Shown in pieces: positions 16,177 to 38,849 of a DNA stretch of 55,105 bases. The DNA is taken from the UHGV virus genome UHGV-0308106. One strand, given 5' to 3'. The translations under genes were made by a program, and so were the position numbers. Below the pieces are notes generated by a model. The model saw only the letters and a list, made by a program, of their open reading frames with translations. It did no database searches and had not been told where the DNA came from. The DNA comes from a virus. Within the stretch, counting starts at the first letter, position 1. Every line of letters starts with the position of its first letter.

Positions 16177-16249
16177 TTCTGGAGACAGCAATACCAAGGT
16201 TCGAGACATTCAGGTAAAATTGATGCATTACAGGATGTGAGGTTGGGGA

Positions 16250-20587: not shown

Positions 20588-20658
20588 AAAACCTCCTGTA
20601 ATTGGTACATAAACAATATCAACTTTGTTACGCAAAAACTCAATGCCTGGAATTGTTT

Positions 20659-24386: not shown

Positions 24387-25619
24387 ATGAAATATTTTTT
24401 CAATACCCGGCTGGGGGAAACCCGCTATCAGCTGGCTGACGGCTCGCTGTTGTGTAAAGACGTGCCGATAGGTCGAACGGGTAAGCAGCTCTACGGCGCT
24501 GCCGATCTGCCAAACCTCAAACCCGACAAGCTCGGTGAGATAGTCGTAACGCGTTCTCCTGAGCAGGTATTCCATCCGGCCACGCTCGCCTCATTCGAAG
24601 GGATGAGCATCACGATCCTGCATCCTGAAGATGAAAACGGGAATGTGCGGCTGGTAAATCCCGAGAACTGGAAAGAGCTTGCGGTCGGGCATTTTCAGAA
24701 CGTTCGGCGCGGGACTGGTGACCAGTCTGATTTGATGCTGGCAGACCTTATCGTCAAAGACGAAAGCGCCATTCAGCTTATCGAAGATGGTCTGCGCGAA
24801 GTGTCGTGCGGCTATGACGCGGAGTACGAGCAGACCGAGCCAGGTAAAGCCGAGCAGGTCGATATTACCGGAAACCATGTGGCTCTTGTCCCTAAAGGCA
24901 GAGCCGGAAATCGTTGTGCAATTGGAGACAGAGACACAATGGCAAATCAAAAGAAAAGCTGGTGGACCCGCATGCGCACGGCCATCAAAACGGGTGACGC
25001 TGACACCATGAACGAACTGCTGGACTCTGCGCCAGCGGCGGTAACGGGTGACGAAGGGGATCTGCCGAGCGGCGTTAACCTCAACATTAACCTTTCACCG
25101 CAGCAACCATTGCCGGACAAAAAGCCGGAAATGGGCGGAGATCCAACCGGCGACGGCGAGGACGATATCAAAACCTTGCTCAAAGCCCTGCTGGCTAAGC
25201 TCGAAGGAACTGCGACGGGCGATAACGACAATAAGCCTGACGAAAAAGACAAAAAAGATCCGACCGGCGACGGCGAGGACGACGAAGAGGAAACCACGAT
25301 TACCGGTGACTCTGCCTATCGTGCCGAGGTTATCGTCCCGGGTATCGATCTGAGCCGTAAGGTGAAACCGACCGCGTTCAAACGTGATGTGCTGGCTGCC
25401 GCTGACAAAACACTGGTTCGCCAGGTTGTCGGTGATGCGGATATCCGCAAATTGCCCAAGCAATCGGTAGATATGGCGTTTAACGCCGTGTCAGAGATTG
25501 CCAAAGGGCGAAACACCCGCAGCACCACGGGCGATGCACAACGTCCAAATATGGGCATGACCAGCATCGCTTCCCTGAACAAACAAAACGCCGACTTCTG
25601 GTCTAACCGCAAAGGATAA
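24387..25619 (+). CDS. Scaffold protein (DUF2213-type)
   Basis: N-terminal domain, acidic DPTGDGEDD repeats, and a C-terminus reading TTGDAQRPNMGMTSIASLNKQNADFWSNRKG. Confidence 0.8.
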   Translation: MKYFFNTRLGETRYQLADGSLLCKDVPIGRTGKQLYGAADLPNLKPDKLGEIVVTRSPEQVFHPATLASFEGMSITILHPEDENGNVRLVNPENWKELAVGHFQNVRRGTGDQSDLMLADLIVKDESAIQLIEDGLREVSCGYDAEYEQTEPGKAEQVDITGNHVALVPKGRAGNRCAIGDRDTMANQKKSWWTRMRTAIKTGDADTMNELLDSAPAAVTGDEGDLPSGVNLNINLSPQQPLPDKKPEMGGDPTGDGEDDIKTLLKALLAKLEGTATGDNDNKPDEKDKKDPTGDGEDDEEETTITGDSAYRAEVIVPGIDLSRKVKPTAFKRDVLAAADKTLVRQVVGDADIRKLPKQSVDMAFNAVSEIAKGRNTRSTTGDAQRPNMGMTSIASLNKQNADFWSNRKG

Positions 25620-25627: not shown

Positions 25628-25648
25628 CTGCATATCTGTACCTTATGC
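25628..25648. repeat. Candidate attL of the satellite
   Basis: CTGCATATCTGTACCTTATGC compared with 38350-38370 TTGCATTCCTGTACCGGATGC: 16 of 21 nt match, with a shared CTGTACC core. Confidence 0.55.
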
Positions 25649-25833
25649 AACTAATATCTATTAATCAGTGCGTTATCGTTCGGAATCATACTGCGTTACT
25701 GGCCTGAACCATAAAAATGACACTCCGAACATGTGCGGATTTATTCGCCGGATTTCGCTTTGATTCGGTACGTGAGGGACTAGAGCGAGAATCATGCGCC
25801 GTTTGCATTACATGGTAGCCAGAGAGGTGTTGA

Positions 25834-27063
25834 ATGATTGTTAGGCCACTAACTAACGTCGAAGTGAAAAGCGCGAAGGCACAGGGCAAGGATTTCAGTT
25901 TGCACGATGGTTTCGGTTTGTTGCTTTACATCACAAGCCGGGGCGGTAAGTCATGGCGTTTTCGGTATGTACACCCGGTAACGAAGAAGAGACAAACCTA
26001 TACCATTGGAAGATACCCGGAGTTTACTTTGTCCGAAGCGAGGGAGGAACGTTCGAAACTGCGCCGTATGGTAGCGCGGGGGATAGATCCGAACGAAGTC
26101 AAAAAAGATACCAGGAATGAACAGCGTAAAATGTACGCGCAGTCATTTCAGGCCGTTGCCGATGAATGGCTAAAAATCAAGATTAAAGAAGGTGCGAGAA
26201 GCAACACGCTTGAATCGCACAATGTGACGTTGAAGCATCTTTCCACGATTTTTAGGCATACCACAGTACATAAAATAAACGCAGCCGATACTATTCAGGC
26301 TTTTAAACCTTTCAGGGAAAGGCCATCAACGCTTACGAAAATGGTTATTACCATCAACGCCATAATGGATTATGCGGTAAATATTGGGGTTATTGAGCAC
26401 AACCCACTATCGAAAATTGGTAAAGCATTCCCGGCTGAAAAAAACGAACCAAGAGCGACTTTACAGAAAGAGCGGTTGCCAGAATTTTTAAGCGCATGGA
26501 ACGAGTTGAGCTTATGGGAGCCATCAAAGCTGGCATTATTATTTCAGATCATTACGATGGTCCGACCTTCGGAAGCTGGCGGCGCTCTCTGGAATGAGAT
26601 TGATTTTGATAATTCAATCTGGCAAATCCCTGCAAGCCGGATGAAAGGAAAGCGCCCCCACGTAGTCCCATTATCGAGCCAGGCTATAAACGTGCTTAAA
26701 GAGGCCGAAAAGTGGAAGCGCTGCGATTATGTTTTCCCCTCATGGCGAAAAGAAAATAAGCCGATCTCACGATGTGCGACTCAGGCCGGAATACACAAAA
26801 CGTCGTTTAAAGGAATGATTGTTCCTCATGGGTTCAGGGCGTTGGCATCTACAGTTTTAAATGACGAGGGGTTCAACCCTGATGTGATTGAGGCTGCACT
26901 CGCTCACAAAAGCGCCGATGCGATTCGAAATGTTTATAACCGTAGCGACTATCTGGAAAAACGCCGGGTTTTAATGCAATGGTGGGGGGACTTTATCGAG
27001 GCCGCAGAGCGTGGAGAGATACTGGAGACCAGCGGCGATAAGGGCTTAAGGCTGGTTGTGTAG
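25834..27063 (+). CDS. int: Satellite tyrosine integrase, P4-type
   Basis: LHDGFGLLLYITSRGGKSWRFRY..., HGFRALAST, LAHKSADAIRNVY. Confidence 0.9.
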   Translation: MIVRPLTNVEVKSAKAQGKDFSLHDGFGLLLYITSRGGKSWRFRYVHPVTKKRQTYTIGRYPEFTLSEAREERSKLRRMVARGIDPNEVKKDTRNEQRKMYAQSFQAVADEWLKIKIKEGARSNTLESHNVTLKHLSTIFRHTTVHKINAADTIQAFKPFRERPSTLTKMVITINAIMDYAVNIGVIEHNPLSKIGKAFPAEKNEPRATLQKERLPEFLSAWNELSLWEPSKLALLFQIITMVRPSEAGGALWNEIDFDNSIWQIPASRMKGKRPHVVPLSSQAINVLKEAEKWKRCDYVFPSWRKENKPISRCATQAGIHKTSFKGMIVPHGFRALASTVLNDEGFNPDVIEAALAHKSADAIRNVYNRSDYLEKRRVLMQWWGDFIEAAERGEILETSGDKGLRLVV

Positions 27064-27104
27064 GGCATATCCATTTTTGGATAATTATGATTTCAAACGG
27101 GAAT

Positions 27105-27130
27105 AGCTGGCTTTAAGCCAGCTTTTTTTA
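27105..27130 (+). terminator. Rho-independent terminator after the satellite int
   Basis: AGCTGGCTT-t-AAGCCAGCT followed by a T-run. Confidence 0.8.
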
Positions 27131-27206
27131 TGCCCAAAGCTAACCGGAATGCGTTTTTTTTTATTCAAATCATATATAATCATATCGAATATATACGGAG
27201 GTTTTT

Positions 27207-27419
27207 ATGTCTATAAGTGGCGGTGATATTCTGCTAAAAGGTGAAGTGAAAGCGCGTTTACGTTATCGCTCAGACTCGTCATTCTACGAGTTTCTAAAAG
27301 ACGAGAAAAACGGCTTTCCAATGCCTTTTAAAGTCGGTGGGCGTAACTGCTGGTATGAAGATGAAGTAGATGCCTGGATAAGTAAACAAAGCGAGAAGCG
27401 CGGGATCTGCACATCATGA
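27207..27419 (+). CDS. alpA: AlpA-family regulator/excisionase-like protein
   Basis: LLKGEVKARL..FPMPFKVGGRNCWYEDEVDAWI. Confidence 0.8.
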   Translation: MSISGGDILLKGEVKARLRYRSDSSFYEFLKDEKNGFPMPFKVGGRNCWYEDEVDAWISKQSEKRGICTS

Positions 27420-27440
27420 ATGTTTGCAGATTTGGGAAAG

Positions 27441-27477
27441 AGGGCTTGCTAACGGCTATCCGGGCAAGCCCTTTTTA
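27441..27477. terminator. Bidirectional terminator
   Basis: AGGGCTTGC...GCAAGCCCT followed by TTTTT. Confidence 0.75.
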
Positions 27478-27558
27478 TTGTCAGTGGTGGGGATCTGTAA
27501 CTTACGGCCACCAGCGCCGGTAATCACCTTCTGGCTGGTGGCTTCACTGGCATGGCTA

Positions 27559-27918
27559 TTACGCTGCCGCATCATCTGAATTGAATTCAATGTGAATTCG
27601 GTCATAAGGCAGCACGATTTTTTCGCCGTCTTTGTCCAGAACGCCGCCGTTAAGCAGTGACTGAACATCGTTATAAACACCGCGAAAATCACGGTTAACA
27701 ATGCGTGATAGTTCGCGGATTGATACGGCTTGCGCTCCCTCCATCGCTTTGATGATCTGCCAGCGGTTAGGGGCAAGCATAGTTTTAGCCAGTTGTTCTA
27801 CAGTGGGAAAAATCAGTTCGGAACCGATGAAATCCCCGTTCATTGCGCGGGAGGCGTCGGACATTGCCACCCGGAAAGCATCATCAACGGTCATTACTCT
27901 GACGGTCAGCACTCGCAT
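27559..27918 (-). CDS. wHTH DNA-binding protein, putative antitoxin (TumA-like)
   Basis: ..RWQIIKAMEGAQAVSIRELSRIVNRDFRGVYNDVQSL.. GGAGG ribosome-binding site. Starts 4 nt after the upstream gene. Confidence 0.7.
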   Translation of the reverse strand: MRVLTVRVMTVDDAFRVAMSDASRAMNGDFIGSELIFPTVEQLAKTMLAPNRWQIIKAMEGAQAVSIRELSRIVNRDFRGVYNDVQSLLNGGVLDKDGEKIVLPYDRIHIEFNSDDAAA

Positions 27919-27922
27919 GGTA

Positions 27923-28204
27923 TTACCTCCTCAACAGGTTTATGTCAGCCTGAAAGCTGGCGATCAGGTTCTCAATGGTGGTGAATGTCACCGGATATTC
28001 CCGATCATGGATGTGTTTGTGGTCGCCTTTGCCACGTTCGTTGTCGTAACGCATGACGCACTCGCCATCTACGATGTAGGCCAGACTGTACTTGTATTGG
28101 TGCTGGCTACCTAAAATTGCCGGGTCTACTTCCAGAATGCGGATCGAGGCGAAAGCGTTATCAGCTATCTGGATACGGCGGTTCATCAACTCAACAGCGG
28201 GCAT
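27923..28204 (-). CDS. DUF6516/TumE-like putative toxin
   Basis: YKYSLAYIVDGECVMRYDNERGKGDHKHI motif, recognised from memory. AAGGAG ribosome-binding site. Confidence 0.6.
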   Translation of the reverse strand: MPAVELMNRRIQIADNAFASIRILEVDPAILGSQHQYKYSLAYIVDGECVMRYDNERGKGDHKHIHDREYPVTFTTIENLIASFQADINLLRR

Positions 28205-28220
28205 TGGCTTATCTCCTTGT

Positions 28221-28270
28221 TGATGTAAATAATAACATCACAAACGAATGATGTAAATGATTACATCATT
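28221..28270. promoter_or_regulatory. Two palindromic operators upstream of the TA-like operon
   Basis: TGATGTAAATAATAACATCA (28221-28240) and AATGATGTAAATGATTACATCATT (28247-28270). Confidence 0.55.
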
Positions 28271-28679
28271 GCGGGTAAGTTACCGATGGCATGAACGGTT
28301 CGCTGCTGGTGGCTCTCGATCTCCTGAAAGCTCAGGATATTGCCGGGCATGATTTTAATCGGCGGACTTTTCGGCCGATTGAATACGGGCAGTTCGCTCC
28401 CTGTGTATCGGCTTCGTTTCTGGATGATTCGCGTTTCGTTTCTGGTGAATTCGCATTCGCAATTTGTCCGCGAAGCCTTATCAGGCCTGATTTGAGCGGT
28501 GCTCTCTCTTTGCGAATTCGCAGTTCCATTTCGCACTTTGATTCGCAGTTTTCAAATGTTCCCATTCCGGGGACACGGACGATTAGACAGGTGTTACAAA
28601 CGTTGGTGGTGAAATATCTTCTTGCGCTGGCGGGCACGGTGTGGTTATGATTATTTCGCACCTCACAAAACGGGTGCCG

Positions 28680-28905
28680 GGCGTGAGAACCCGGATAAGG
28701 TCAAAGGCGACAACAGACGCCTATCGCGTCTTTTTTTTGTCGCAATGTCAGTACCCCCATATGTAGCGGCGCAGATCCGCGCACAGAATCAATGGTGGCT
28801 CTGGCAGGGCAGCTTTCGGGCTGGCCGGTTCCCTTTGACGCCGGTATTCTCACCCCTGTCAGTGTCACCACCCTTTAGAGCGTGAGAACTCAGGTGGTGG
28901 CTCCT
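28680..28905 (+). ncRNA. Candidate c4/CI-like antisense-RNA immunity region upstream of the icd-like gene
   Basis: TTCTCAC (28847-28853) and CACCACC (28866-28872) are complementary to GTGAGAA (28882-28888) and GGTGGTG (28893-28899), which lie just 5' of the icd ribosome-binding site. GCGTGAGAAC occurs twice (28681 and 28880). A terminator hairpin plus T8 lies at 28716-28738. Confidence 0.3.
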
Positions 28906-28931
28906 TAAATTAGTCAAAGGAGATCATCATC

Positions 28932-29129
28932 ATGATGACTATCCCTACCCTCGCTCAAACAAAATTCACCTGGCGCTTTCTCGCGCTGAATCGCCACGAT
29001 AAAAAAGCCAAACCTTGCCGTCTGTCCGTTGAGGCTGCGACCGAACGCGAAGCCCGCCGCATCCTTGCGCCGCACTTTATTTTGTCTCTGGCCGCACGTC
29101 TGCCAGTGCCGGAGGTGCGTCATGTTTAA
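28932..29129 (+). CDS. Icd-like cell-division inhibitor family protein
   Basis: FLALNRHDKKAKPCRLSVEAATEREARRILAPHFILSLAARLPV. AAGGAG ribosome-binding site. Confidence 0.65.
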   Translation: MMTIPTLAQTKFTWRFLALNRHDKKAKPCRLSVEAATEREARRILAPHFILSLAARLPVPEVRHV

Positions 29130-30000
29130 CCTCCAGACACTGACAGCTAAAGCCCGTGAGCTGCGCGGCAACGTCGTTAAAGCGGCGAGCACAAAGGGAA
29201 GTCGCACCATGACTCCTGTCTATGACCGTGACGAGCAGCGCAAGCTACGCGAGCGCATCCAGCAGACACAGCCCGATTGGGTGTTGCTCTGGTGGGATAT
29301 TGCGACCGTAACCGGCTGGCGTACCAGCGACGTTTGCAACCTGCGCTATTCCTGCGTCAATTGGGAAACGGGGCAGGCGACAATTATCGTTGCCAAGCAG
29401 ACCAAAGCCGCCGAAGCGCGGGCAACCCGCAAAGGTATTGAAATTGTGCGCCAGCAGCGCAAGGACGCCGCGCGGCTCGCCGCTGACCATATCGCCTACA
29501 TGAAGTGGGATAGTATCGGTTGTGACGAACTGGCCGCCGATATGAACGACGAGGAACAGGCGATTGTGTTCGGGCTGGTGGCAAAGGCTGACGTCAAGCA
29601 CGACACCAAACAGTTACCGCCCGGCATTATCAAGCGGCTGCGTGACCGTCAGGATCGGAATCTGGTGGAGGACGACCTGGTATTTTCACGCTCTCAAATC
29701 GAAAGTAACCGTTGTCAACGTCTGGAAGGTAGCGTTACTCGCCAAACCATCTGGCGCAAACTTCATGGCGTCATGGCGTGGTTTACCCGTTTCATTAACG
29801 CTAAATTGCGCCTGAGCGCGTACTCAAGCCGAAAAATAGCAGCCTTTAATCTTATGTCCGCAGGTGGCGAACAGGGATTATTGGTGGCTTCTGAAATGCT
29901 GGGGCATAGCAACCCGGCGATAACTCGCACTTACCTTCAATTAGGCAGCAAAGCCGCCGCTATCCAGTCCCGTTTAGCAATGGAGGTGTGCCATGCGTAA
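29122..30000 (+). CDS. Tyrosine-recombinase-fold protein (atypical)
   Basis: TGWRTSD (R), YSSRK in place of HxxR, and LGHSNPAITRTYLQ (H..Y). GGAGGTG ribosome-binding site. Confidence 0.6.
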   Translation: MFNLQTLTAKARELRGNVVKAASTKGSRTMTPVYDRDEQRKLRERIQQTQPDWVLLWWDIATVTGWRTSDVCNLRYSCVNWETGQATIIVAKQTKAAEARATRKGIEIVRQQRKDAARLAADHIAYMKWDSIGCDELAADMNDEEQAIVFGLVAKADVKHDTKQLPPGIIKRLRDRQDRNLVEDDLVFSRSQIESNRCQRLEGSVTRQTIWRKLHGVMAWFTRFINAKLRLSAYSSRKIAAFNLMSAGGEQGLLVASEMLGHSNPAITRTYLQLGSKAAAIQSRLAMEVCHA

Positions 30001-30172
30001 TCTCTTTCATATCACTGGCTACGCCGTCAATAAACGCGGCCTGACAGTCGGTTTTAGCTATCTCATCGACGCCGAGGACGCCATGCAGGCAAAAGTTAAT
30101 GCCATTGCTGAGGCGAAAGACGATGAACTCACCCACGTATCTATTGCCCGTATTCTGGAGGTGGCAGCATGA
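29993..30172 (+). CDS. Hypothetical 59-aa protein
   Basis: Hand-translated, beginning MRNLFHITGYAVNKRG. GGAGG ribosome-binding site. ATGA overlap with the next gene. Confidence 0.55.
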   Translation: MRNLFHITGYAVNKRGLTVGFSYLIDAEDAMQAKVNAIAEAKDDELTHVSIARILEVAA

Positions 30173-30381
30173 GCAAAGTATCCCTGGCCGATTCAACCTG
30201 CCGTATCCAACAGGCGCAGGAAGTCCTGTCTCTCTGGCTTGAGGCGACGAATAAAAACGATAGCGGCACGGCTAAATTAATCGGCGCAATCATTTCCCTT
30301 CTGGATGGTATCCCCGAATTGATGGATTCAGTAGAGGATGAATTGGCTGGCATGGACTTAAAAGCGATGGATAAAGCATGA
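30169..30381 (+). CDS. Hypothetical 70-aa protein
   Basis: Translationally coupled ORF. Confidence 0.6.
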   Translation: MSKVSLADSTCRIQQAQEVLSLWLEATNKNDSGTAKLIGAIISLLDGIPELMDSVEDELAGMDLKAMDKA

Positions 30382-31004
30382 GCAACGTAGAGAAATTCAC
30401 ACCGGGAAATGCCGACTTATTACACGCCGAAGCCACACCGCACGGCGTAAACATCATGACCCGCAATGATGCCGGGATGTATGAGCATGTAGCCATTATC
30501 ACCTATGAGAGCGCTGTAAGCCGTCTGGATGCGGGAGAGTACGACGATACGCCAGATATCGGCTACGCCATTCATTTTGCCGTTGCTGATGGCGGGGCGC
30601 GTGGCTGGTTCGACTTTACCGCGCAGCATGAAGTAACCATGTGGCGCTGGCTGATTGCTGCGACGTTCGTTTCTGAGATGAAGCGCGAAAACGGCACAAC
30701 CTCCGTCACGGAGGCTGACGGCACAACATCGCAGGTGGCGATTTACTCCAATGGTAATGCGGGCATGGTGATTTACCCGTTTGCTGAACGGCTGGCGATG
30801 GCGAACAACATCGAGGGCGCAATGATTGAGCGATACGGCGTCGAACAGGGTACGGAAAAAGCCATTGTGTTTTATCAGGCCATGCTGGATACGGAGCGCG
30901 GCGAGCTTACCCCGTTCGGACGTGAAACGCTGGCAGAGCTACACGATCACTTCATTGCTGATCTGGATGAAAACGGCTGGCCTGAAATGCCAGCGGCGCA
31001 CTGA
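30378..31004 (+). CDS. Hypothetical 208-aa protein
   Basis: Coupled ORF upstream of the primase gene. Confidence 0.65.
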   Translation: MSNVEKFTPGNADLLHAEATPHGVNIMTRNDAGMYEHVAIITYESAVSRLDAGEYDDTPDIGYAIHFAVADGGARGWFDFTAQHEVTMWRWLIAATFVSEMKRENGTTSVTEADGTTSQVAIYSNGNAGMVIYPFAERLAMANNIEGAMIERYGVEQGTEKAIVFYQAMLDTERGELTPFGRETLAELHDHFIADLDENGWPEMPAAH

Positions 31005-31016
31005 GGGAGCGACACA

Positions 31017-33797
31017 ATGCGTAATATCGACCTTATCCGCGAAGTGACCAGCGCCGCAGCAGGGCGCTGGCCTTATGTGCTGGCTGGGTTGTCTATCGAC
31101 GTGCCTGATTCATCGCGCCGCCATTCTCCATGCCCTGCATGTGGTGGAAAAGACCGTTTCAGATTCGACGACAACGGGCGCGGTAGCTTTATCTGCAACC
31201 AGTGTGGCGCTGGTGACGGGCTGGATTTAATCAAGCGGGTTAACAACTGCGACACTACGGAGGCGGCACAGCTTGCCGCTGACGTGCTGGGTATTGATTA
31301 CCGGGCAGCGCAATCCGACCCGGTGGCAGCGAGCCATATAAGGGAGCAACTGGAAGCTGACCGCCAGCAGCGTGAGCAGGAGCGCCAGAAACAGGCAGCA
31401 GGGGACGCAGAGCAGCGAAGGGCTACGTTTGCCCGTCTGTATGCCGGAATGCGCCAGAGTGCCACACAGGGCGAATCTGATTACCTGCAATCAAAAGGGC
31501 TGACCGGGTTTAACTATCCGGTTATGCCTGATGGTTCGTTATTGCTGGAGCTGGTGGACGAATCCGGCGCAGTGGCAGCAGCGCAAACCATTACACCGCA
31601 GGGAGAGAAGCGACTCCTGACAGGTTCAGCAAAGCGCGGGGCATATCACGCCGTAAACGCGCCAGAATCGCCGCAGAGCGTTTTAATTGCCGAGGGGCTG
31701 GCGACGGCCCTTTCAGTTCACCTGATGCGCCCGGACGCGCTGGCAGTGGCAGCAATTGACGCGGGCAACCTGCTACCCGTTGCCGAAGTGATGCGCCGGA
31801 AGTACCCACAGGCACAAATCATCATTGCCGCAGATAACGACCAGATGGGCGAAAGTGACGGAATTAAAGGAGTGAAAGTTAACACTGGCAAGGAGGCCGC
31901 AGAGAAAGCCGCGAAAGCCGTTTCTGGCTGGGTTTCCATGCCACCAGTGGACTATAAAGCGGACTGGAACGACTACCACCAGCAATACGGCCTCGAAGCG
32001 GCCACAGCAGCATTTAACGACTCAATGTATCAACCGGAGGGTAAGAAAGTGGGTGCGACACTGACAGCTATCGACGGCGGCAAGAAAAAACTTGGTATCG
32101 ACGACGATCTGAAACCGCGAGTAGAGAGCCGTGCGGATGGCATTCACTGGATCACCCCGAAAGTGGACAAAGACACAGGAGAAATTATCAATACCGAGGC
32201 GTGGCTATGCTCTCCGCTGGAGATTGCTGGTGCGGGGAGTGATAACGCCAGACAGCGCTTTCTGATCCTGCGTTGGGACGTCCCCGGCAACCGGGGGCAA
32301 GTTACCCGTGCGCTTCCATGGGAGGACATTGGCGACCGTGAGGGATGGCGCACGCTGAAAAACGGCGGTGTCAGTGTGACAACCAAACCATCGTTGCGGG
32401 CAATTCTGGCCGACTGGCTGCAGCGAACTGGTAGCGGCAAGGAATGGCAGATCAGCCACACCACAGGCTGGCACAACGGGGCGTACATCATGCCGGATGG
32501 TGATGTTATTGGTGAGCCAGAGATACCGCTGTTATTCAGTGGTCGGAGTGCGGCGGCTGGTGGCTATACCGTCAGTGGAACGCCGGAAAGCTGGCGTGAT
32601 TCGGTGGCGCGTCTTGCGCTGGGAAACCCGTCAATGATGCTGGGCGTTGCTGCTGCGCTTTCTGCGCCGCTGATCGGGCTTGTTGGCGCTGACGGGTTCG
32701 GCGTGCATCTTTTCGAGCAGTCCAGCGCAGGGAAGACAACCACCGCCAACATTGCCAGCAGTTTATACGGTGAACCGGATGCCTTGCGCCTTACCTGGTA
32801 CGGTACAGCGCTGGGTATCGCCAACGAAGCGGAAGCGCATAACGACAGCCTGTTACCGCTGGATGAAGTGGGGCAGGGCAGTAGCGCCAAAGACGTTGCT
32901 ACGTCTGCTTACACGCTGTTTAACGGTGCCGGAAAGCTACAGGGGGCCAAGGAGGGCGGCAACCGTGAGTTAAAGCGCTGGCGCACCGTGGCGATCAGTA
33001 CCGGGGAAATGGACATTGAGACGTTTCTTTCTGCTGGTGGGCTGAAAGTTAAGGCCGGGCAACTGGTGCGATTGCTTAATTTACCGATGGAGAAATCAGT
33101 AACGCACCATGAGTACCAGAACGGGAAGCAACACGCCGACGCACTCAAAGAGGCTTACCAGACGAACCACGGAGCCGCAGGCCGTGAATGGATTAAATGG
33201 CTTGCAGGCCACCAGCAGGAGGCAAAACAAGCTGTCAGGGCGGCGCAAGAGCGCTGGCGCAGTCTTATCCCCGCTGATTATGGCGAACAGGTTCATCGTG
33301 TCGGTGAGCGGTTCGCCATTCTGGAGGCGGCGCTGGTGCTGGGGATGCCTGTCACTGGTTGGGGGGAGCAGGAAAGTCGGGACGCTATCCAGCATGGCTT
33401 TAATGCTTGGGTAAAAGAGTTTGGCACGGGGAACCGTGAGCATAAGCAGATCATCGAGCAGGCAGAGGCGTTTCTTAATGCCTACGGCATGAGCCGTTTC
33501 GCGCCGTTCCCGTATAGCCCGGCTGACATGCCGATCCGGGATTTAGCCGGATACCGTCAGAAAGGTGAGCATGACGAAAGCCCCGTAGTGTTCTACACCT
33601 TTCCGGCTGCGTTCGAAAAGGAGATAGCGCAGGGCTTTAATGCGAAACAGTTTGCCCGTGTGCTGGCCGGGGCTGGGGTACTGAAACCGCCAGCCAGCGG
33701 AAGGGGATATCAGCGTAAATCCCCGCGAATTGATGGACGCCAGATAAACGTTTATGTGCTCCAGCTACGACCCGACGAGATAGAGGGCGAAGAATAA
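31017..33797 (+). CDS. Primase-helicase (P4 alpha-like): zinc ribbon, Toprim and P-loop helicase
   Basis: CPACGGKDRFRFDD..CNQCG; LIAEGLATALS..AADND; Walker A SSAGKTT. Confidence 0.9.
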   Translation: MRNIDLIREVTSAAAGRWPYVLAGLSIDVPDSSRRHSPCPACGGKDRFRFDDNGRGSFICNQCGAGDGLDLIKRVNNCDTTEAAQLAADVLGIDYRAAQSDPVAASHIREQLEADRQQREQERQKQAAGDAEQRRATFARLYAGMRQSATQGESDYLQSKGLTGFNYPVMPDGSLLLELVDESGAVAAAQTITPQGEKRLLTGSAKRGAYHAVNAPESPQSVLIAEGLATALSVHLMRPDALAVAAIDAGNLLPVAEVMRRKYPQAQIIIAADNDQMGESDGIKGVKVNTGKEAAEKAAKAVSGWVSMPPVDYKADWNDYHQQYGLEAATAAFNDSMYQPEGKKVGATLTAIDGGKKKLGIDDDLKPRVESRADGIHWITPKVDKDTGEIINTEAWLCSPLEIAGAGSDNARQRFLILRWDVPGNRGQVTRALPWEDIGDREGWRTLKNGGVSVTTKPSLRAILADWLQRTGSGKEWQISHTTGWHNGAYIMPDGDVIGEPEIPLLFSGRSAAAGGYTVSGTPESWRDSVARLALGNPSMMLGVAAALSAPLIGLVGADGFGVHLFEQSSAGKTTTANIASSLYGEPDALRLTWYGTALGIANEAEAHNDSLLPLDEVGQGSSAKDVATSAYTLFNGAGKLQGAKEGGNRELKRWRTVAISTGEMDIETFLSAGGLKVKAGQLVRLLNLPMEKSVTHHEYQNGKQHADALKEAYQTNHGAAGREWIKWLAGHQQEAKQAVRAAQERWRSLIPADYGEQVHRVGERFAILEAALVLGMPVTGWGEQESRDAIQHGFNAWVKEFGTGNREHKQIIEQAEAFLNAYGMSRFAPFPYSPADMPIRDLAGYRQKGEHDESPVVFYTFPAAFEKEIAQGFNAKQFARVLAGAGVLKPPASGRGYQRKSPRIDGRQINVYVLQLRPDEIEGEE

Positions 33798-33821
33798 AAC
33801 ACACATACGAGATGTTTTTTT

Positions 33822-34114
33822 GTTGGTTCAGTTGGTTCAGTAACTATTTAATTAAGATAAGTATATGTATTTAATATATTTCTATACCCATAAGTGAACC
33901 AACACTGAACCAACAAATACCCATTTTGAACCAACAAATGCCGCTATTGAACCAACGCCCTTTTCTGGCTGGCCTGTAAATCTTTCCCACTGAACCAACA
34001 CGAAAATAGCGTTTGTTGGTTCAAAACAAGGCTTTGTTGGTTCACTCCTCAAGAAATAATCCTTACAAAACAACAATCTTTACAAATTGAACCAACTGAA
34101 CCAACTGAACCAAC
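33822..34114. repeat. Satellite replication origin: 12 copies of TGAACCAAC plus an AT-rich tract
   Basis: Forward copies at 33895, 33906, 33927, 33948, 33991, 34088, 34097 and 34106. Inverted copies at 33822, 33831, 34015 and 34036. AT-rich tract at 33841-33890. Confidence 0.8.
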
Positions 34115-34221
34115 ATGTTTTTGTTTATCTATAGAGTTTTTTCGGAGAGTAATTACGAATTTGGAGGGGCATCGCCTAAGCGACAGTATGCGGAAACGGC
34201 AACTTTGCGGAGCGGAAAAGA

Positions 34222-34252
34222 AAAAGCCCGCGCTGGAGAGGCGAGGGCTTTT
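34222..34252 (+). terminator. Rho-independent terminator
   Basis: AAAGCCC...GGGCTTT followed by a T-rich tail. Confidence 0.6.
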
Positions 34253-34397
34253 GTTAACCATGTTTATGCAATCACACAATGGTGGATCACCGTCATAGTA
34301 CCACGTCGATTTATCATTTCAATGTACGCAATGATGTTTACTAATATTGCAATTTATGCAATGATCAGAATTTAAACAACGCAAAAGGTTATGAACA

Positions 34398-34961
34398 ATG
34401 AAACAGATAACCAATGTTAATCTGGAAAGTGATAACGCTGGTGGTACAGTCGAGGTGACTTACTCCGATGATACGTTCGAAAGGCTGACCTGTTCGCTGC
34501 CTGTGGCTCTCGTCATTGCGAACCTTGCAACGACGCTTAAGCAGGAACGTGCAACACGCATTGCAACCGGCGACCGCCTGCGCCGGATGTATACCCGCGA
34601 TAGTGACATGATTACCCGCAGCGGCAGCGGCGCTTCTACGACCTCCACCGCGCCAACGTCAATGGACGCTGAATTTATGCGCCTGGTACGCGCTGTAGCA
34701 CCAAAGTATGACAACGCCCTTCCTGATACCGATCCTCGCCTTGTTGCGCTTGATGTGCTGCGTTACGCACCCGCTGAGGCATTCAGTGCGGTACACCCGA
34801 CCCCGCTATCAGAGATTCAGCTTGATCAGGCTATCGACGTTCTGGAACAGGTTGGCGACTACATGCGAGTTAACAACGTTTCACCGAAGATTCTCACCAC
34901 AGGCGACGCCATTCGCAGCATTAACACCGACAACGCCAGTTTCTGGCATCGCACGAAGTAA
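34398..34961 (+). CDS. Satellite protein ending in a helper-scaffold-like tail (candidate alternative scaffold / capsid-size redirector)
   Basis: The C-terminus TTGDAIRSINTDNASFWHRTK parallels the helper scaffold TTGDAQRP..SLNKQNADFWSNRKG. Confidence 0.7.
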   Translation: MKQITNVNLESDNAGGTVEVTYSDDTFERLTCSLPVALVIANLATTLKQERATRIATGDRLRRMYTRDSDMITRSGSGASTTSTAPTSMDAEFMRLVRAVAPKYDNALPDTDPRLVALDVLRYAPAEAFSAVHPTPLSEIQLDQAIDVLEQVGDYMRVNNVSPKILTTGDAIRSINTDNASFWHRTK

Positions 34962-34973
34962 GGAGCAATGAGC

Positions 34974-35162
34974 ATGGCTATTTATGACCCGAAATTAGCA
35001 GCAGGAAACCCGCAAAGCGCCGGGCGTAAACTCTTTGGCCGTGAACAGGCCGAGCAATTGCGGATGCGTAACAACTTCAACAACGAATGCCGCAATCTGG
35101 AAAAAGTCAACGAAGCGAATGCAAAGTTCTGGAGTGAACAGGATGAAAAAGCCAAACGTTAA
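34974..35162 (+). CDS. Small protein carrying a second scaffold-tail-like motif
   Basis: ..LEKVNEANAKFWSEQDEKAKR. An AAGGAG lies 9 nt before the ATG at 34974. Confidence 0.55.
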   Translation: MAIYDPKLAAGNPQSAGRKLFGREQAEQLRMRNNFNNECRNLEKVNEANAKFWSEQDEKAKR

Positions 35163-35310
35163 GCCGGTATTACTCTCTGGCGACCAGTTCGCCGCAATCT
35201 GCAAGATCCAGGAGCGCGAACGCCAGCGCTCCGATATTGGCGTAGCGCCGTCTGTCCATCAAATTGCCCGTGGGCTGGTGGCGAAAGCGCTGGCATCAAT
35301 TCAGGAATAA
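35143..35310 (+). CDS. Hypothetical 55-aa protein, possibly a small DNA-binding protein
   Basis: MKKPNVKPVLLSGDQFAAICKIQERER..SVHQIARGLVAKAL. The RHH-like reading is speculative. Confidence 0.45.
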   Translation: MKKPNVKPVLLSGDQFAAICKIQERERQRSDIGVAPSVHQIARGLVAKALASIQE

Positions 35311-35315
35311 CGACT

Positions 35316-36383
35316 ATGTCATATAACTGGATGCGCCATTTCGAGCTACAGCTCATCGATGAGAATGGCAAAGGAATTAGCCTTAGTGATTTCAAAGTTA
35401 CCTTTGATATAGAGCGTAACGATAACAAATGGCCAGCTGTTGCGACGGTCAAGATCTACAACCTTTCACCAACTACTCAGAACCGTATTATGCAACGTGA
35501 GTTTGCCAAAATTGTGTTGATAGCGGGGTATGATGGTCGTGCGCAGGATGTAAGGGCAAGTGATGTGGGGATTGCACGTGAAATATCAGCAAGCGAAGTG
35601 GGCCAGGCTAACGGCGCAAACTACGGAGTCATTTTCAGCGGTGATATCCGCTTCACTGTGACCGGAAAAGATAACCCTGTCGATTCATGGGTACAGGTGC
35701 AGGCTTGTGACTCTGTGGAGGCGTTTACCAGCGCATTTATCAACACCACTATCAGCAAAGGCTACACCACAGAAGATATTTATGTTGAGCTTATGAAAAG
35801 GCTGGAACCTTACGGCATTTCTCGCGGTATTGTTCCTGAATTCCCGGCAACGGTATTTCCTCGCGGTCGAGCCCTCTTTGGCTATGTCCATAACTATCTC
35901 GATGAAGTGGCCGCGCAGTGCAAAGCCACTTGGCAATTCAACTATGGAAAAGTCGATATTGTTCCCAGAGACAAGGCCACTCATGAAGCTGTGGTTCTCA
36001 ACGCTAATACCGGGCTTATCGGTATGCCTCAGCAGACCATCGGTGCGGGTGTGAATGTCAAATGCCTGATTAACTCACGGATTCACCTGAACGGGCTTAT
36101 CCAACTGGATCAGGCTTCGGTATATCGTAGCGCCTTATCTGCGGATCAAATTGCCCAAGCTGGTGGGCCAATTTCGGTGGAAAGCCAAAACGGAAACCTT
36201 GTCACTACTGGATTAACGCAGAGTCCGGCGAGCATTGCTACCGATGGTATCTATAAGGTTCGGTATATCAGTTACACGGGCGACACGCGCGGTCAAGCGT
36301 GGTATATGGATCTGGCGTGTGAGGCTCGCGGGAATTCTGATTTATTTTCAAGTTCATTTATGAATAAGCAGAGTGAAGAATGA
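35316..36383 (+). CDS. Baseplate hub protein, satellite paralog of 47472-48536
   Basis: Colinear over its full length with the helper protein (MSYNWMRHFELQL.. against MSLNWMRHFELQL..). Roughly 60% identical by eye. Confidence 0.8.
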   Translation: MSYNWMRHFELQLIDENGKGISLSDFKVTFDIERNDNKWPAVATVKIYNLSPTTQNRIMQREFAKIVLIAGYDGRAQDVRASDVGIAREISASEVGQANGANYGVIFSGDIRFTVTGKDNPVDSWVQVQACDSVEAFTSAFINTTISKGYTTEDIYVELMKRLEPYGISRGIVPEFPATVFPRGRALFGYVHNYLDEVAAQCKATWQFNYGKVDIVPRDKATHEAVVLNANTGLIGMPQQTIGAGVNVKCLINSRIHLNGLIQLDQASVYRSALSADQIAQAGGPISVESQNGNLVTTGLTQSPASIATDGIYKVRYISYTGDTRGQAWYMDLACEARGNSDLFSSSFMNKQSEE

Positions 36384-36724
36384 AGAAGATTATTTTACTG
36401 ATTGGTTTATTGGGCGCATCTGGAAGTCATGCTGCGCAGGTTATTACCATGCAGTGCGGAAACTTTCGCTTTGAGATGATAGAAAACTCGATGGCGAGAA
36501 TTAATGGTGAGTATGTAACATCTCAGAAAATTACAGAGTTCGGACAGAACGGGGCAAAAGTAGAAATGACGCTTATGCCTGCCAGCGATGGGAATCTGTA
36601 TGGGTTTGAATACATCCATCCTGACGGTAGCAAAAAGCGCTGGCTGAATGTTGAGCTTATCCGCACCAATATGAATCAGGCGCGGATCATTGGCTCGTTT
36701 GATTGTAAGCGCGTGAAGGGGTAA
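36380..36724 (+). CDS. Secreted small protein, satellite paralog of 48549-48893
   Basis: Signal peptide ending SHA/AQ. Conserved QCGxF near the mature N-terminus and DC(K/R)(R/K)VK at the C-terminus. Confidence 0.7.
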   Translation: MKKIILLIGLLGASGSHAAQVITMQCGNFRFEMIENSMARINGEYVTSQKITEFGQNGAKVEMTLMPASDGNLYGFEYIHPDGSKKRWLNVELIRTNMNQARIIGSFDCKRVKG

Positions 36725-36732
36725 GGGGAATC

Positions 36733-37395
36733 ATGCCATTCATTCGACCCGCAAATGAGCAGGATGTAACACAGCTTGTTCAGGACAATGCTAAAGCATC
36801 TGTAACCAATGCGTTACCTGGCATTATTCGTTCGTTCGATCCCGAAACTGTCACCTGCGATGTTGATATAGCCATTACGGCAAGAATGACGAAGGCTGGC
36901 ACAATGGGTGAAGATTTCCAGTATGAGTCCGTCCGCTATCCGATTCTTAACGATTTGCCTGTGGTTTTTCCGCGCGGGGGCGGAGTTACGCTTACTTTCC
37001 CGGTTAAAGATGGTGATGAATGCCTCATCGTATTCTCTTCGCGTTCGATTGATTTCTGGTGGCAGAACGGCGGTGTGCAGGAGCGAGCTGATGGGCGTAT
37101 TTTAGATCTGTCTGATGCGTTCGTTATTCCTGGCCCCCAATCACAGGTAAAGAAGATATCCAATATCAGTACCAACGCTGCGCAGCTGCGTACAGATGAT
37201 GGAGCGGCATTTGTAGAGGTGTCCGCTGGTGGAGCCATTACTATTACCAGCTCTCAAATCACCCTTAACGGGCCCGTGCAGGTAAACGGAACGATCACTT
37301 CCACTGGCGACCAAACGGCCAACGGTATCAGCCAGATTAACCATACCCACGGCGGCGTACAATCAGGCGGCAGCAACACAGGAAAACCACAATGA
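36733..37395 (+). CDS. Central tail spike (Gp138-N / gpV-like), satellite paralog of 49430-50170
   Basis: PGIIRSFDPETVTC..FPRGGG.TLTFPVK.GDECL..DFWWQ.GGVQ, and an apex reading HTHGGVQSGG. Confidence 0.8.
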   Translation: MPFIRPANEQDVTQLVQDNAKASVTNALPGIIRSFDPETVTCDVDIAITARMTKAGTMGEDFQYESVRYPILNDLPVVFPRGGGVTLTFPVKDGDECLIVFSSRSIDFWWQNGGVQERADGRILDLSDAFVIPGPQSQVKKISNISTNAAQLRTDDGAAFVEVSAGGAITITSSQITLNGPVQVNGTITSTGDQTANGISQINHTHGGVQSGGSNTGKPQ

Positions 37396-37571
37396 GCAAT
37401 ATTGAAAAACTGAAACCAGAAGAAAGCGGATCCAGCCAGAATGGTAAGGTTCGTACCTGGCTGGATGATATCAACGGGCAGCCGGAACCAGATGGTATTG
37501 GCAGCTTCGGTGAGAGTGCGATCTGCGAAGAATCACGCACAGCGGAAACCATGCGAAATAACGTAGGGTGA
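37392..37571 (+). CDS. Hypothetical acidic 59-aa protein
   Basis: Hand-translated, beginning MSNIEKLKPEESGSSQNGKV. ATGA overlap with the spike stop. Confidence 0.45.
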   Translation: MSNIEKLKPEESGSSQNGKVRTWLDDINGQPEPDGIGSFGESAICEESRTAETMRNNVG

Positions 37572-37598
37572 CGGTCAGATGACGTGATCTGTAACTTT

Positions 37599-37640
37599 AA
37601 GTAGCGGTGCAGGGGCAGAACTCAGCACGCTACTTTTATT
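37599..37640 (+). terminator. Hairpin plus T-rich tail before the satellite terS
   Basis: AAGTAGCG...CGCTACTT followed by TTATTTT. Confidence 0.5.
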
Positions 37641-37661
37641 TTCTTTGTCAAAAGGTGAACA

Positions 37662-38135
37662 ATGGCGGCATTACCAACAATGGCTAAGGTTATGATTATT
37701 CAATCATTAGCTTGCTACGAACCCCCTTCCAGAATCGTTGAGCTTGTAAAACAAGATTTTGGCATCGTCGTTACCCGGCAGCAGATATCGGCCTACAACC
37801 CTGAAAATACAATGGCAAAAAATCTTAGCCAAAAATGGGTAGAACTCTTTAATCACACTCGCGCCCGCTTCCAGAGTGAAATATCCGAGATCCCTATCGC
37901 TAACAAAGCGTACCGGCTGCGTATGCTCGATCGCATGGCTAACCGTGCAGAGGCAATCAAGAATTACGCATTAACAGCGCAGCTTATTGAACAGGCCGCG
38001 AAAGAGTGCGGGGACGCTTACACCAACAAATTAAAGGTTGAAACAACGGGTAAAGATGGTGGTCCGATCAGAACGGAAACAACGAACTTAACCGCCGAAG
38101 AAGCCGGGGAGGCATACCGCAAATTTATGGGATAA
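37662..38135 (+). CDS. terS: Terminase small subunit (DUF2280-type), satellite paralog
   Basis: Same length (157 aa) as the helper TerS. The C-terminal half is close to identical (LTAQLIEQAAKE.GDAYTNKLKVE.TGKDGGPI.TETTNLTA) and the N-terminal part is diverged. Confidence 0.8.
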   Translation: MAALPTMAKVMIIQSLACYEPPSRIVELVKQDFGIVVTRQQISAYNPENTMAKNLSQKWVELFNHTRARFQSEISEIPIANKAYRLRMLDRMANRAEAIKNYALTAQLIEQAAKECGDAYTNKLKVETTGKDGGPIRTETTNLTAEEAGEAYRKFMG

Positions 38136-38349
38136 CCACCAGCGCCGTGACACGTCACACGCAAAAATAGCACCGCCCATTAATGGGCTGGTGGCACAGC
38201 TTGCATATTGAAATTCCCTGTAAATCTTACAGATCTGGTATTGAGTAACTTACCCCATTCAGCGCCATACATCACAGAGCAGCCTATGGACTACACACAA
38301 AATCAGGCTGCAAATAAATCCTTATATTTCAGTTGATTAAATAATAGCC

Positions 38350-38370
38350 TTGCATTCCTGTACCGGATGC
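38350..38370. repeat. Candidate attR of the satellite
   Basis: Partner of 25628-25648. It overlaps the resumed reading frame of the cement gene. Confidence 0.55.
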
Positions 38371-38849
38371 CTGTTGGCATTGCCGGGGCTATCTCTCGCC
38401 CGCAGGACTTAACCGTCGAACCGGTGATCCTTAAATCCGCTAACGCCTTCGCTGCCTATGGTCTGGCTGGCAAATATGACGCTGACGGCTTTTTCGTGCC
38501 GCTGGCGGACGGTGACACCGCCGACAAGGTGAAGGGGATCTACGTTCGTCCGTATCCGACCACATCGCAGCCAGACATGGTTCGCCAGGTGGGGACGGAT
38601 AAGAACTTCCCGGGTGACGCCATGAAGCGTGGCTACATGACCGTTAATCTCGGTTCTGATTTTGATGCCAGCACCATCAAAAAAGGCGACCCGGTATACG
38701 TTGTCGTCTCCACTGATGAATCCATAAAAGTGCCGCTGGGCGGCTTCATGTCCACGTCCGTCAGTGGCAAAAACGTGGCGCTGACCAACGCCGAATTCAC
38801 AGGGGCCGGTGACGCTAACGGCAATGTAGAAATCTCCTGGAAGATTTAA
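38367..38849 (+). CDS. Capsid cement/decoration protein, with its native 5' end apparently displaced by the insertion
   Basis: Lies between the scaffold and the major capsid gene. There is no SD before the ATG at 38367. The frame upstream reads AFLYR, matching MTAYLY.. at 25624. Confidence 0.7.
   Translation: MPVGIAGAISRPQDLTVEPVILKSANAFAAYGLAGKYDADGFFVPLADGDTADKVKGIYVRPYPTTSQPDMVRQVGTDKNFPGDAMKRGYMTVNLGSDFDASTIKKGDPVYVVVSTDESIKVPLGGFMSTSVSGKNVALTNAEFTGAGDANGNVEISWKI

Follow-up and report, generated by a model that had tools for sequence, protein, structure and literature searches.

The window analysed here is UHGV virus genome UHGV-0308106, a stretch of 55,105 nucleotides (nt) holding a prophage, the helper, whose head operon is interrupted by a 12.7-kb block, the element, between the genes for the DUF2213 protease-scaffold and the cement protein. 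The best explanation for this block is an integrative element with a backbone of the type seen in P4 and in phage-inducible chromosomal islands (PICIs), which entered the first cement codons at a 7-bp core through recombination by a tyrosine integrase. Judged by its sequence, the element carries integration, immunity-RNA and replication modules of its own and appears to have adapted to the helper lineage over a long time. We consider it probable that the element is a satellite embedded in its helper and dependent on this prophage lineage. An earlier note on this DNA had described a satellite-like, helper-dependent block in the head operon, and the comparative evidence set out below supports that description.

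The insertion site and its occupancy

We found that both junctions of the block aligned with the empty site of Escherichia coli S1, which placed the ends of the element at two copies of the sequence CTGTACC and gave it a size of 12,722 bp. The block that the earlier note had drawn at 25628-38370 is thus real, although each of its ends was off by about 10 nt. The head gene order that had been seen to stop at 25619 and to resume at 38367 was borne out by the gene calls and by the families of the resuming genes (PF22758 and DUF2184). At the empty site of E. coli S1, 4 nt separate the scaffold stop from the cement ATG, and the same spacing occurs in Citrobacter phage Omnitron (98.9% identity). In the window, the original cement ATG of the helper lies at 25625, upstream of the attL core, and the cement gene in the integrated state is left without its first 7 codons and its ribosome-binding site. 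Its reading frame restarts at the eighth codon (M8), with both the upstream start codon and the Shine-Dalgarno sequence absent, and encodes 160 amino acids (aa), compared with 167 aa for the intact orthologue of E. coli S1. The earlier note spoke of the restoration of the cement gene; we find a gene that is not destroyed and that lacks these two parts only. All genes of the element lie on the plus strand, co-oriented with the helper late operon, except for a toxin-antitoxin (TA) pair on the minus strand.

To what extent is this site occupied? Among 5,426 complete E. coli genomes, the scaffold-cement junction was uninterrupted in 336 and occupied in 4 (ABWA45, ECONIH5, EC2001 and ET791). Similarly, a 22-kb query over the region matched Omnitron and many E. 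coli prophages in its flanks only, and these flanks lay side by side. The earlier note had proposed checking whether scaffold and cement genes are adjacent in related prophages: they are, in Omnitron and in the E. coli genomes with an open junction, and the block, present in so few E. coli genomes, is not a fixed part of all close relatives. An integrase of at least 99% identity was found at the same junction in 13 other sequences, namely the 4 E. coli genomes, Apirhabdus apintestini and 8 IMG/VR contigs, and cargo varies among these copies. Because the same integrase recurs at the same junction, this arrangement is not due to chance, and the element is a facultative, site-specific insertion. 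The same core genes also occur elsewhere: in E. coli G5 they lie next to tRNA-Thr, with an unrelated integrase (32% identity), and in Citrobacter they are present in further contexts.

We also searched for the attP junction, using a 19-nt probe specific for the joined right and left ends. One such junction stands at the end of IMGVR_UViG_3300045988_113726, whose assembly runs from helper through attL and the whole satellite to attP. Another was found in the ENA metagenome contig OGVK01015064.1, which matches over some 60-90 nt to either side of the core. These junctions indicate, at the level of assembled sequence, that an excised or tandem form of the element exists. A third match to the probe, Ga0131853_10247877, had flanks without similarity and was discarded as chance. 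As a separate observation, IMG/VR metagenome 3300045988 holds three helper-satellite composites with distinct cargo (056744, 080056 and 113726), one of which ends in attP; contig 080056 (55,303 bp) resembles the window very closely without being identical to it.

These results bear on the view that the block is fixed or ancestral in the phage lineage, a large moron or accessory module rather than a separate mobile element. Such a view is in keeping with the co-orientation of the block with the late operon and with the paralogy of several of its genes to phage genes. It is refuted, however, by the empty sites (336 E. coli genomes and Omnitron, against 4 occupied), and it is further opposed by the element's own integrase, the 7-bp core at both ends, the core genes at tRNA-Thr in G5 and the attP junction. 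We give it next to no credence.

The helper is a temperate prophage that combines lambdoid early genes with an E217/SEN34-like myovirus virion. Its early genes include RecT with an exonuclease, a CI-like repressor, an O-like replication protein and a Q-like antiterminator. Its virion module is E217/Pam3-like, with cement, sheath, tape measure, Dit-like protein, Pam3 gp18-like plug, hub and spike followed by baseplate genes. The helper is also a mosaic, with 93-99% identity to Omnitron over the virion and lysis region and, for most of the early region (integrase, RecT, exonuclease, repressor, O-like gene and Q), no nucleotide match to that phage. Features of helper and element are collected in Table 1.

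Table 1. Positions in the window of the features of the element and of its helper.
Feature	Position	Strand	Basis and remarks
Helper integrase	449-1699
Helper Q-like antiterminator	15263-16045
Helper small terminase (TerS)	19876-20349	+	DUF2280
Helper large terminase (TerL)	20602-22281	+	Head gene run
Helper portal	22281-23750	+	Head gene run
Helper MuF	23599-24372	+	Head gene run
Helper DUF2213 head protease-scaffold	24387-25619	+	PF09979, PHROG head maturation protease; last helper gene before insertion
attL core CTGTACC	25636-25642	+	Within cement codons 2-6; alignment with E. coli S1 empty site
Primary tyrosine integrase (int)	25834-27063	+	PF13356, PF22022, PF00589; phrog_1; arm-binding, central and catalytic domains
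Terminator-like hairpin and T-run	27105-27123	+	Directly 3' of the integrase gene; consensus scan only
AlpA-like small helix-turn-helix (HTH) protein	27207-27419	+	PF05930, 20.5 bits against cutoff 21 (borderline)
HVO_A0114-type TA partner	27559-27918	-	Pfam PF20126/PF25212 pair
TumE toxin	27923-28204	-	Pfam PF20126/PF25212 pair
isrK-family RNA, relative of P4 seqA	28658-28736	+	Rfam RF01394, 61.3 bits against gathering 50; terminator at end
C4-family RNA, relative of P4 CI immunity RNA	28788-28875	+	Rfam RF01695, 78.8 bits against gathering 45
Icd-like gene	28932-29129	+	NCBIfam NF033153, E = 1.4e-22
int2, second tyrosine recombinase (about 293 aa)	29119-30000	+	PF00589 only
phrog_1515 protein	30378-31004	+	PHROG match, E = 2.2e-49
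Primase-helicase: Zn-ribbon, Toprim, DUF927	31017-33797	+	PF08273, PF13362, PF06048; phrog_1139 DNA primase, E = 3.7e-186
Origin-like iteron array, 12 copies of TGAACCAAC	33822-34114	Both (8 +, 4 -)	Exact pattern search
187-aa satellite-specific protein, last helix ending ...IRSINTDNASFWHRTK	34398-34961	+	Motif scan
64-aa protein, motif near C-terminus ...KVNEANAKFWSEQ...	34968-35162	+	Always adjacent to the 187-aa gene
Baseplate hub paralogue	35316-36383	+	phrog_196; blastp 63% identity to helper hub 47472-48536
114-aa phrog_3443 protein	36380-36724	+	Signal-like N-terminus, two conserved Cys; 31% against helper 48549-48893
Central spike with Apex motif	36733-37395	+	PF18352, PF18946, PF21930; 51% against helper spike 49430-50170
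DUF2280 TerS paralogue	37662-38135	+	PF10045; 64% against helper TerS 19876-20349
attR core CTGTACC	38358-38364	+	Alignment with E. coli S1 empty site
Helper cement gene, truncated	38367-38849	+	PF22758 Phage_cement, match begins at profile position 9
Helper major capsid gene	38861-39802	+	DUF2184; follows cement gene
Helper sheath	42075-43235

Integration, immunity and replication modules

The reading of the left half of the element given in the earlier note held up in most respects. We found that the integrase assignment was correct and extended to the arm-binding domain (PF13356), that the TA-like pair consists of TumE and an HVO_A0114-type partner by Pfam, that the Icd-like gene matches its NCBIfam family, and that the array named a 12-iteron origin contains exactly 12 copies of its repeat. 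Two assignments stood in part. The AlpA gene is present as a candidate, with a score that falls just under the family cutoff. A primase-helicase is also present, but its helicase half is DUF927 and not the D5_N/Pox_D5 of P4 alpha, so that the label of an alpha-type enzyme does not carry over.

The promoter scan predicted no sigma-70-like promoter upstream of int. The AlpA-like gene lies beside int, as in Gram-negative PICIs, and is 100% conserved in many relatives; its product is presumed to be an excision and regulatory factor. The second tyrosine recombinase gene, int2, comes after the Icd-like gene and is retained even where the primary integrase is swapped. In the Pfam scan, int2 gave no match to PF13356 (Arm-DNA-binding) or PF22022 (Phage_int_M). 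We compared int2 in the window with its counterparts in relatives L004, L007, L017-L019 and L034-L037. Its protein is 95-99% identical across relatives despite an identity of only 87-92% for the DNA of the same gene, and the neighbouring primase is about 80% identical in the same satellites, a pattern that points to very strong purifying selection on int2. Multimer resolution and action on helper DNA are both possible roles for int2.

Between the AlpA-like gene and int2 lies a dynamic zone. Its TA pair is accessory cargo that is missing from some relatives. At 28221-28268, a pair of near-palindromes of 20 nt each (TGATGTAAATAATAACATCA and TGATGTAAATGATTACATCA), spaced 28 nt apart, overlaps divergent promoter-like sites between TumE and the RNA genes; it is probably an operator of the TA pair. 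The two RNA genes match the C4 and isrK families, which detect the P4 CI RNA and P4 seqA, respectively (PMC10111431). From these matches, the element appears to carry an immunity feature of the P4 CI-RNA type (C4 family). A Bro-N domain was not found in the window copy of the element. Beyond int2, the replication zone encodes the phrog_1515 protein and the primase-helicase and ends in the iteron array. Only one further copy of TGAACCAAC occurs in the window outside the array, and 0.49 copies would be expected over its whole length.

We next considered the integrases related to the primary integrase, which number 1,646 in all and were sampled at 51-64% identity. Those of the Klebsiella pneumoniae satellites are 56-57% identical to it, and these satellites lie inside the DUF2184 capsid gene, at about codon 131, with the core TGAAGTGGAA, or more often in a chromosomal major facilitator superfamily (MFS) gene. 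In K. pneumoniae CP084818 and CP143280, for example, the satellites sit inside the major capsid gene of GZ7-like prophages. Klebsiella copies with 97-100% identical integrases occupy the chromosomal MFS transporter gene in 20 of the 24 contigs examined, and this is apparently the commoner site. The five cases outside Klebsiella, one of which was checked at both ends, lie after a sheath-initiator baseplate gene in Enterobacter (P0043, 64%), behind a small terminase gene, across a gap of 1.1 kb, in both Citrobacter braakii (P0050, 56%) and Pantoea (P0052, 56%), after a truncated GpA-type large terminase gene in Salmonella (P0071, 51%), and between head-completion and baseplate genes in E. coli (P0080, 51%). 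The last of these, in E. coli SA53-3, has helper late genes on both sides and lies inside an Stx2a-converting prophage. Because the sampled relatives lie just downstream of phage late genes, their sequences suggest a second integrase clade with a tropism for the late genes of prophages, the first being that of the helper-embedded PICIs (HE-PICIs) discussed below. With respect to its own content, the SA53-3 satellite (NZ_CP076279.1, 1436-1448 kb), placed between head-completion and P2-like baseplate genes, encodes major capsid, decoration and small terminase genes of its own.

Could the position in the cement gene be an accident, the off-target integration of an island that is normally chromosomal? 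The Klebsiella relatives, with their 97-100% identical integrases, are found for the most part in the chromosomal MFS gene and just occasionally within the capsid gene of the helper, and off-target events have been documented for HE-PICIs (PMC10111431). Yet 14 of 14 copies with this integrase (at least 99% identity, window included) lie at the cement site, in several hosts and with varied cargo, and no chromosomal copy with this integrase was found in the 5,426 E. coli genomes. Moreover, each of the five integrase relatives that were sampled at 51-64% has co-oriented late genes of a phage just upstream of it. An accident of this kind is, in our judgement, very improbable.

Scaffold-tail proteins, small terminase and tail tip

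We scanned 22 open reading frames (ORFs) of the block against Pfam, and 20 of them also against PHROGs. Among these ORFs we found no capsid, portal, TerL, sheath or tube family, as the earlier note had said, and the element must therefore borrow these parts from the helper. Its late zone encodes two kinds of product: small proteins that share a tail with the helper scaffold, and paralogues of the helper's terminase and tail-tip genes. The note had recognized both, and both were upheld, the former by a motif scan together with a 24-residue tail alignment and the latter by blastp.

The helper protease-scaffold ends in ...SIASLNKQNADFWSNRKG, the source of the motif seen in the satellite. We found that this motif, N..NA.FW, occurs exactly three times in the 110,206 six-frame codons of the window: twice at a C-terminus, in the helper scaffold and in the 187-aa protein, and once close to one, in the 64-aa protein. 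When the profiles of the 187-aa and scaffold families were compared with each other, just the last 24 residues of each aligned, with the low probability of a short match. The genes for the 187-aa and 64-aa proteins are the only late-zone genes kept in every relative. The 187-aa protein matched no Pfam, PHROG or NCBIfam family and had no homologue in 50,697 phage records, and its own family comprises 40 clusters across Enterobacterales. In the Klebsiella branch, the GZ7-like helper scaffold ends in ...IAGMNQAAQEFWSKRG, the satellite proteins end in ...AIGDAAKKAWGRK or ...AIGDSAKKFWSKK, and an uncalled small ORF carries ...NINQSNKDFWEQKK. There, neither the helper scaffold nor the large satellite protein keeps the Asn of 'NA', and these changes of the tail provide modest evidence that helper and satellite may co-vary.

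Our proposal for the 187-aa protein is that it competes with the scaffold and acts on capsid size. By analogy, the closest functional precedent for the scaffold-tail proteins would be CpmB of SaPI1, a competitor of the 80alpha scaffold for the site that this scaffold has on the capsid protein (PMC5644958). The element is 0.30 times the size of its helper (12.7 kb against the 41.9 kb of Omnitron), a ratio that would fit a size model of the CpmB type, and seven embedded relatives span 12.2-15.1 kb. In a structure model of moderate confidence (mean predicted local distance difference test score 68.6), the 187-aa protein has a small beta-sheet and a long helix, then a disordered linker, a domain built of helices and, at its end, the helix with the motif. 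A Foldseek search of this model against the PDB gave no hit below E = 0.2, and the fold favours neither a scaffold nor an HTH regulator.

A different account of the same protein would make the element a true satellite whose 187-aa product is a transcriptional regulator and whose genome is packaged as multimers in full-size helper capsids, as in PICMIs (minimalist islands of the phage-inducible chromosomal kind) and some PICIs. NCBI names the family 'XRE family transcriptional regulator' (clusters P0002-P0037), the modelled central domain is helical and bears no likeness to a known scaffold, and three copies of the element (38 kb) come near to one helper genome. The name, however, is backed by no Pfam or NCBIfam HTH match and by no PDB regulator of similar fold. 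Furthermore, the sole similarity of the protein is the C-terminal tail common to the helper scaffold and the 64-aa protein, and its gene heads the late operon beside structural genes. We think that a regulatory role of this kind is unlikely.

The remainder of the late zone encodes the hub, the 114-aa phrog_3443 protein (of periplasmic type), the spike, a 59-aa ORF and TerS. The order from hub to spike is the same as in the helper, with the phrog_3443 protein between the two in both. The TerS had been called PICI-like; a TerS is indeed present, but a more exact description is a paralogue of the DUF2280 TerS that the helper itself encodes. Counted from the blastp alignment, the two TerS proteins are 48% identical over residues 1-60 and 74% identical over residues 61-157, and the N-terminal third of the satellite protein has a weak winged-HTH match (PF14090, residues 13-41, E = 0.015) that lies below the family cutoff. 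In the usual layout of TerS, which we assume here, DNA recognition is N-terminal and contact with TerL is C-terminal. The pattern of identity would fit an altered DNA specificity with a kept contact to the helper TerL. Among the 50,697 phage records, the closest hub was that of the helper lineage, at 62%, and satellite hubs were 61-100% identical to one another. Because no phage hub exceeds 62%, we conclude that the hub-spike cassette is an old satellite-borne lineage and not a recent capture. The presence of a secreted protein within a tail-tip cassette recalls, by analogy, superinfection-exclusion proteins. We found nothing relevant in the literature on satellites with baseplate or spike genes, or on satellites tied to SEN34-like phages.

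Relatives differ in what lies between the 64-aa gene and TerS. In the window this slot holds the hub-spike cassette; in relatives L006 and L009 (10925-13300) the cassette is longer, with Dit-like and gp18-like genes besides; and ABWA45 and ECONIH5 have there a weak 'peptidase M41'-like protein or unfamiliar genes plus IS5. In relatives L003 and L005 the slot lies at 14846-15565 and 14260-16798, respectively. PADLOC detected no defence genes among the slot cargo of ABWA45 and ECONIH5, or among the TA pair, the phrog_1515 protein, the periplasmic-type protein and int2 of the window. A late-promoter motif shared by satellite and helper was considered and rejected: the repeats (TAYGCAATGAT) that lie upstream of the late operon in the satellite have no counterpart at the late genes of the helper.

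These features suggest the following life cycle for a helper-embedded satellite. Upon induction of the helper, Q-modified late transcription would run from the scaffold gene into the element. We infer such read-through from the lack of a promoter-like site ahead of int and from the Q antiterminator that the helper encodes. The Q-modified transcripts would ignore the terminators after int and within isrK, as well as the P4-type RNA immunity, and read-through would thereby lead to expression of int, AlpA, the primase and replication genes, and the late operon. Once excised, the element would leave an intact cement gene behind and form a circle that replicates from the 12-iteron origin. The satellite TerS would recruit the helper TerL to satellite DNA, and the 187-aa and 64-aa tail-mimic proteins would redirect assembly to small capsids that hold about 30% of the helper genome, in the manner of SaPI1 CpmB. 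This small-capsid step, which rests on that analogy, is a serious possibility that we advance tentatively. Finally, the cassette of hub, periplasmic-type protein and spike would replace the tail-tip core. The diverged tail tip would perhaps let particles enter helper lysogens, the sole cells that bear attB, and the signal-bearing phrog_3443 protein might, with low confidence, act in exclusion; any specific role for the tail-tip cassette is doubtful. For a published HE-PICI, Eco567.11capE (11capE), excision of the embedded satellite after replication of the composite has been measured, and the same cis-regulatory logic has been proposed and partly measured (PMC10111431).

Several points weigh against this reading. 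We infer excision, replication, packaging and small capsids of the element from its sequence throughout. The attP junctions could derive from tandem integration and not from free circles, and one of the two attP contigs matches over just about 60-90 nt beside the core. The reconstructed attP contains no repeat of at least 8 nt that could mark arm-type integrase sites, and neither a pac site nor a late promoter was identified. The 187-aa protein is without a recognisable fold, its mimicry rests on a short motif, and it bears the XRE name in NCBI. Relatives of the ABWA45 type are without the TerS paralogue and several relatives are without the hub-spike cassette, so that neither is essential to the family. 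Lastly, the heads and tails of myoviruses assemble separately; a satellite tail tip would therefore not be private to satellite particles, and its benefit is unclear.

Some of these points would also suit an integrative island that uses the prophage as a landing site or vehicle, passive or decaying, and is not itself packaged into helper-derived particles: its packaging site and small capsids are putative, some relatives have no TerS, and no virions were recoverable for the published 11capE (PMC10111431). On the other hand, the element has retained intact and long-diverged TerS, hub and spike paralogues together with two scaffold-tail proteins, the 187-aa and 64-aa genes are found in every relative, and the sizes cluster near one third of the helper genome. 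In addition, the composite amounts to about 130% of the helper genome (Omnitron, 41.9 kb), beyond the roughly 10% extra of lambda (PMC10111431), with the reservation that the capacity of this capsid may differ. We regard a passive island as quite improbable and favour the helper-embedded satellite.

Comparison with known satellites

The earlier note held that the element matches no known family of satellites. Satellites embedded in their helpers had, however, been described in 2023 by Tommasini, Mageeney and Williams as HE-PICIs: 491 satellites that occupy 14 sites in genes cognate to the late genes of lambda, share the orientation of the helper and carry no gene-restoring attP (PMC10111431). 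Like HE-PICIs such as 11capE, the element has a four-zone order (int and AlpA; a dynamic zone with C4 and isrK; primase and origin; late diverged helper genes) and a proposed cis-control by helper late transcription. Unlike them, it has an integrase with only 22% identity and 69 bits to that of 11capE (from E. coli NRG857c), where the cutoff of the published study was 400 bits by TBLASTN; the P0080 integrase reaches 90 bits. The attP of HE-PICIs carries a doubled TGTATTGC about 81 bp upstream and 132 bp downstream of its centre (PMC10111431). We found no tandem TGTATTGC near either end of the element, where single matches with one mismatch occur at chance frequency only, and no doubled copy in its reconstructed attP. 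The att core, the accessions of the occupied genomes, DUF2213 and DUF2184 are absent from the HE-PICI supplement rows listed (PMC10111431), an absence that is not proof. The helper virion of the element is that of an E217/SEN34-like myovirus, in contrast to the lambda-like helpers of HE-PICIs, and its site is the 5' end of the cement gene. Its late zone also differs, with TerS, tail-tip genes and scaffold-tail mimics as opposed to capsid and decoration genes.

Embedding of this kind gives a satellite direct cis-control over its host virus: a virion gene is intact only once the satellite leaves, and the late transcription of the helper can switch the satellite on. If a second, unrelated clade does have the same preference for late genes, with helpers of the myovirus type, then embedding would be a recurrent strategy and not the peculiarity of one lineage. 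As a Gram-negative counterpart of SaPI CpmB, the scaffold-tail mimic pair would lend itself to direct testing. The satellite hub and spike raise the question of whether satellites can alter the entry apparatus besides the capsid; if the tail-tip core is indeed the satellite's own, this would be the first satellite known to alter the penetration device. Composites also inflate prophage predictions, since the window is an apparent phage of 55 kb that is really two elements.

The element resembles P4 in its candidate AlpA-type regulator, its C4- and isrK-type RNAs, its Icd-like gene, its fused primase-helicase with a nearby iteron origin, its size near 12 kb and its myovirus helper. Its integrase would belong to the broad P4/PICI group, going by the integrase tree of PMC10111431. 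It differs from P4 in that Psu, Delta (Ogr/Delta) and Sid are absent from the scanned ORFs, which also hold no Ash/epsilon family, in that its helicase is DUF927 and not D5_N/Pox_D5, and in that its helper is not P2-like. The ECONIH5 relative does carry an annotated 'ash family protein'. The proposed internal scaffold competitor of the element likewise contrasts with the external Sid cage of P4. By the P4-like criteria of SatelliteFinder (PMC10085698), the element has int, a borderline AlpA and no Ash, and at most 3-4 of 7 components. Because Psu, Delta and Sid are absent, the element is not P4-like in the SatelliteFinder sense.

With SaPI1, the satellite of 80alpha, the element shares a TerS paralogue of its own, presumably working with the helper TerL, and a size of about one third of the helper genome. 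Its small proteins share the C-terminal tail of the helper scaffold, as CpmB does (PMC5644958). It is nonetheless unrelated to SaPI1 in sequence, belongs to a Gram-negative host, is embedded in its helper and not in the chromosome, carries tail-tip genes, and has an RNA-based immunity in place of Stl.

EcCICFT073, a Gram-negative PICI, redirects packaging via Rpp. Such PICIs and the element have in common a start with int and alpA, unidirectional genes, a primase followed by an origin, a packaging gene at the right end and a length of 10-15 kb. EcCICFT073, unlike the element, is without terS (PMC10111431), occupies a chromosomal site and has no tail genes. More generally, the element departs from classical PICIs by encoding hub and spike structural genes and by sitting inside a prophage. 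Capsid-forming PICIs (cf-PICIs) also encode some virion parts and take the rest from the helper. They encode capsid, portal, protease and connectors and steal tails, whereas the element does the reverse for the hub and spike of its tail tip. No major capsid, portal, protease or head-tail connector family was found in the block by Pfam and PHROGs, and the element is not a cf-PICI.

The scaffold-tail mimic pair and the tail-tip cassette were found in no described satellite. One might go further and see in the element an undescribed satellite lineage of E217/SEN34-like temperate myoviruses, which would unite a second origin of embedding in an integrase clade unrelated to that of the HE-PICIs and hopping among cement, major capsid, baseplate, terminase and tail genes, capsid hijacking by scaffold tails, and a tail-tip core of its own that may admit particles to helper lysogens closed to the helper's tail tip; we consider this fuller proposition somewhat unlikely. 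Together, these comparisons place the element beside the HE-PICIs in its overall plan, and what is new in it is a different integrase clade, a helper of the myovirus type, a new att site, and the scaffold-tail pair together with the tail-tip cassette.

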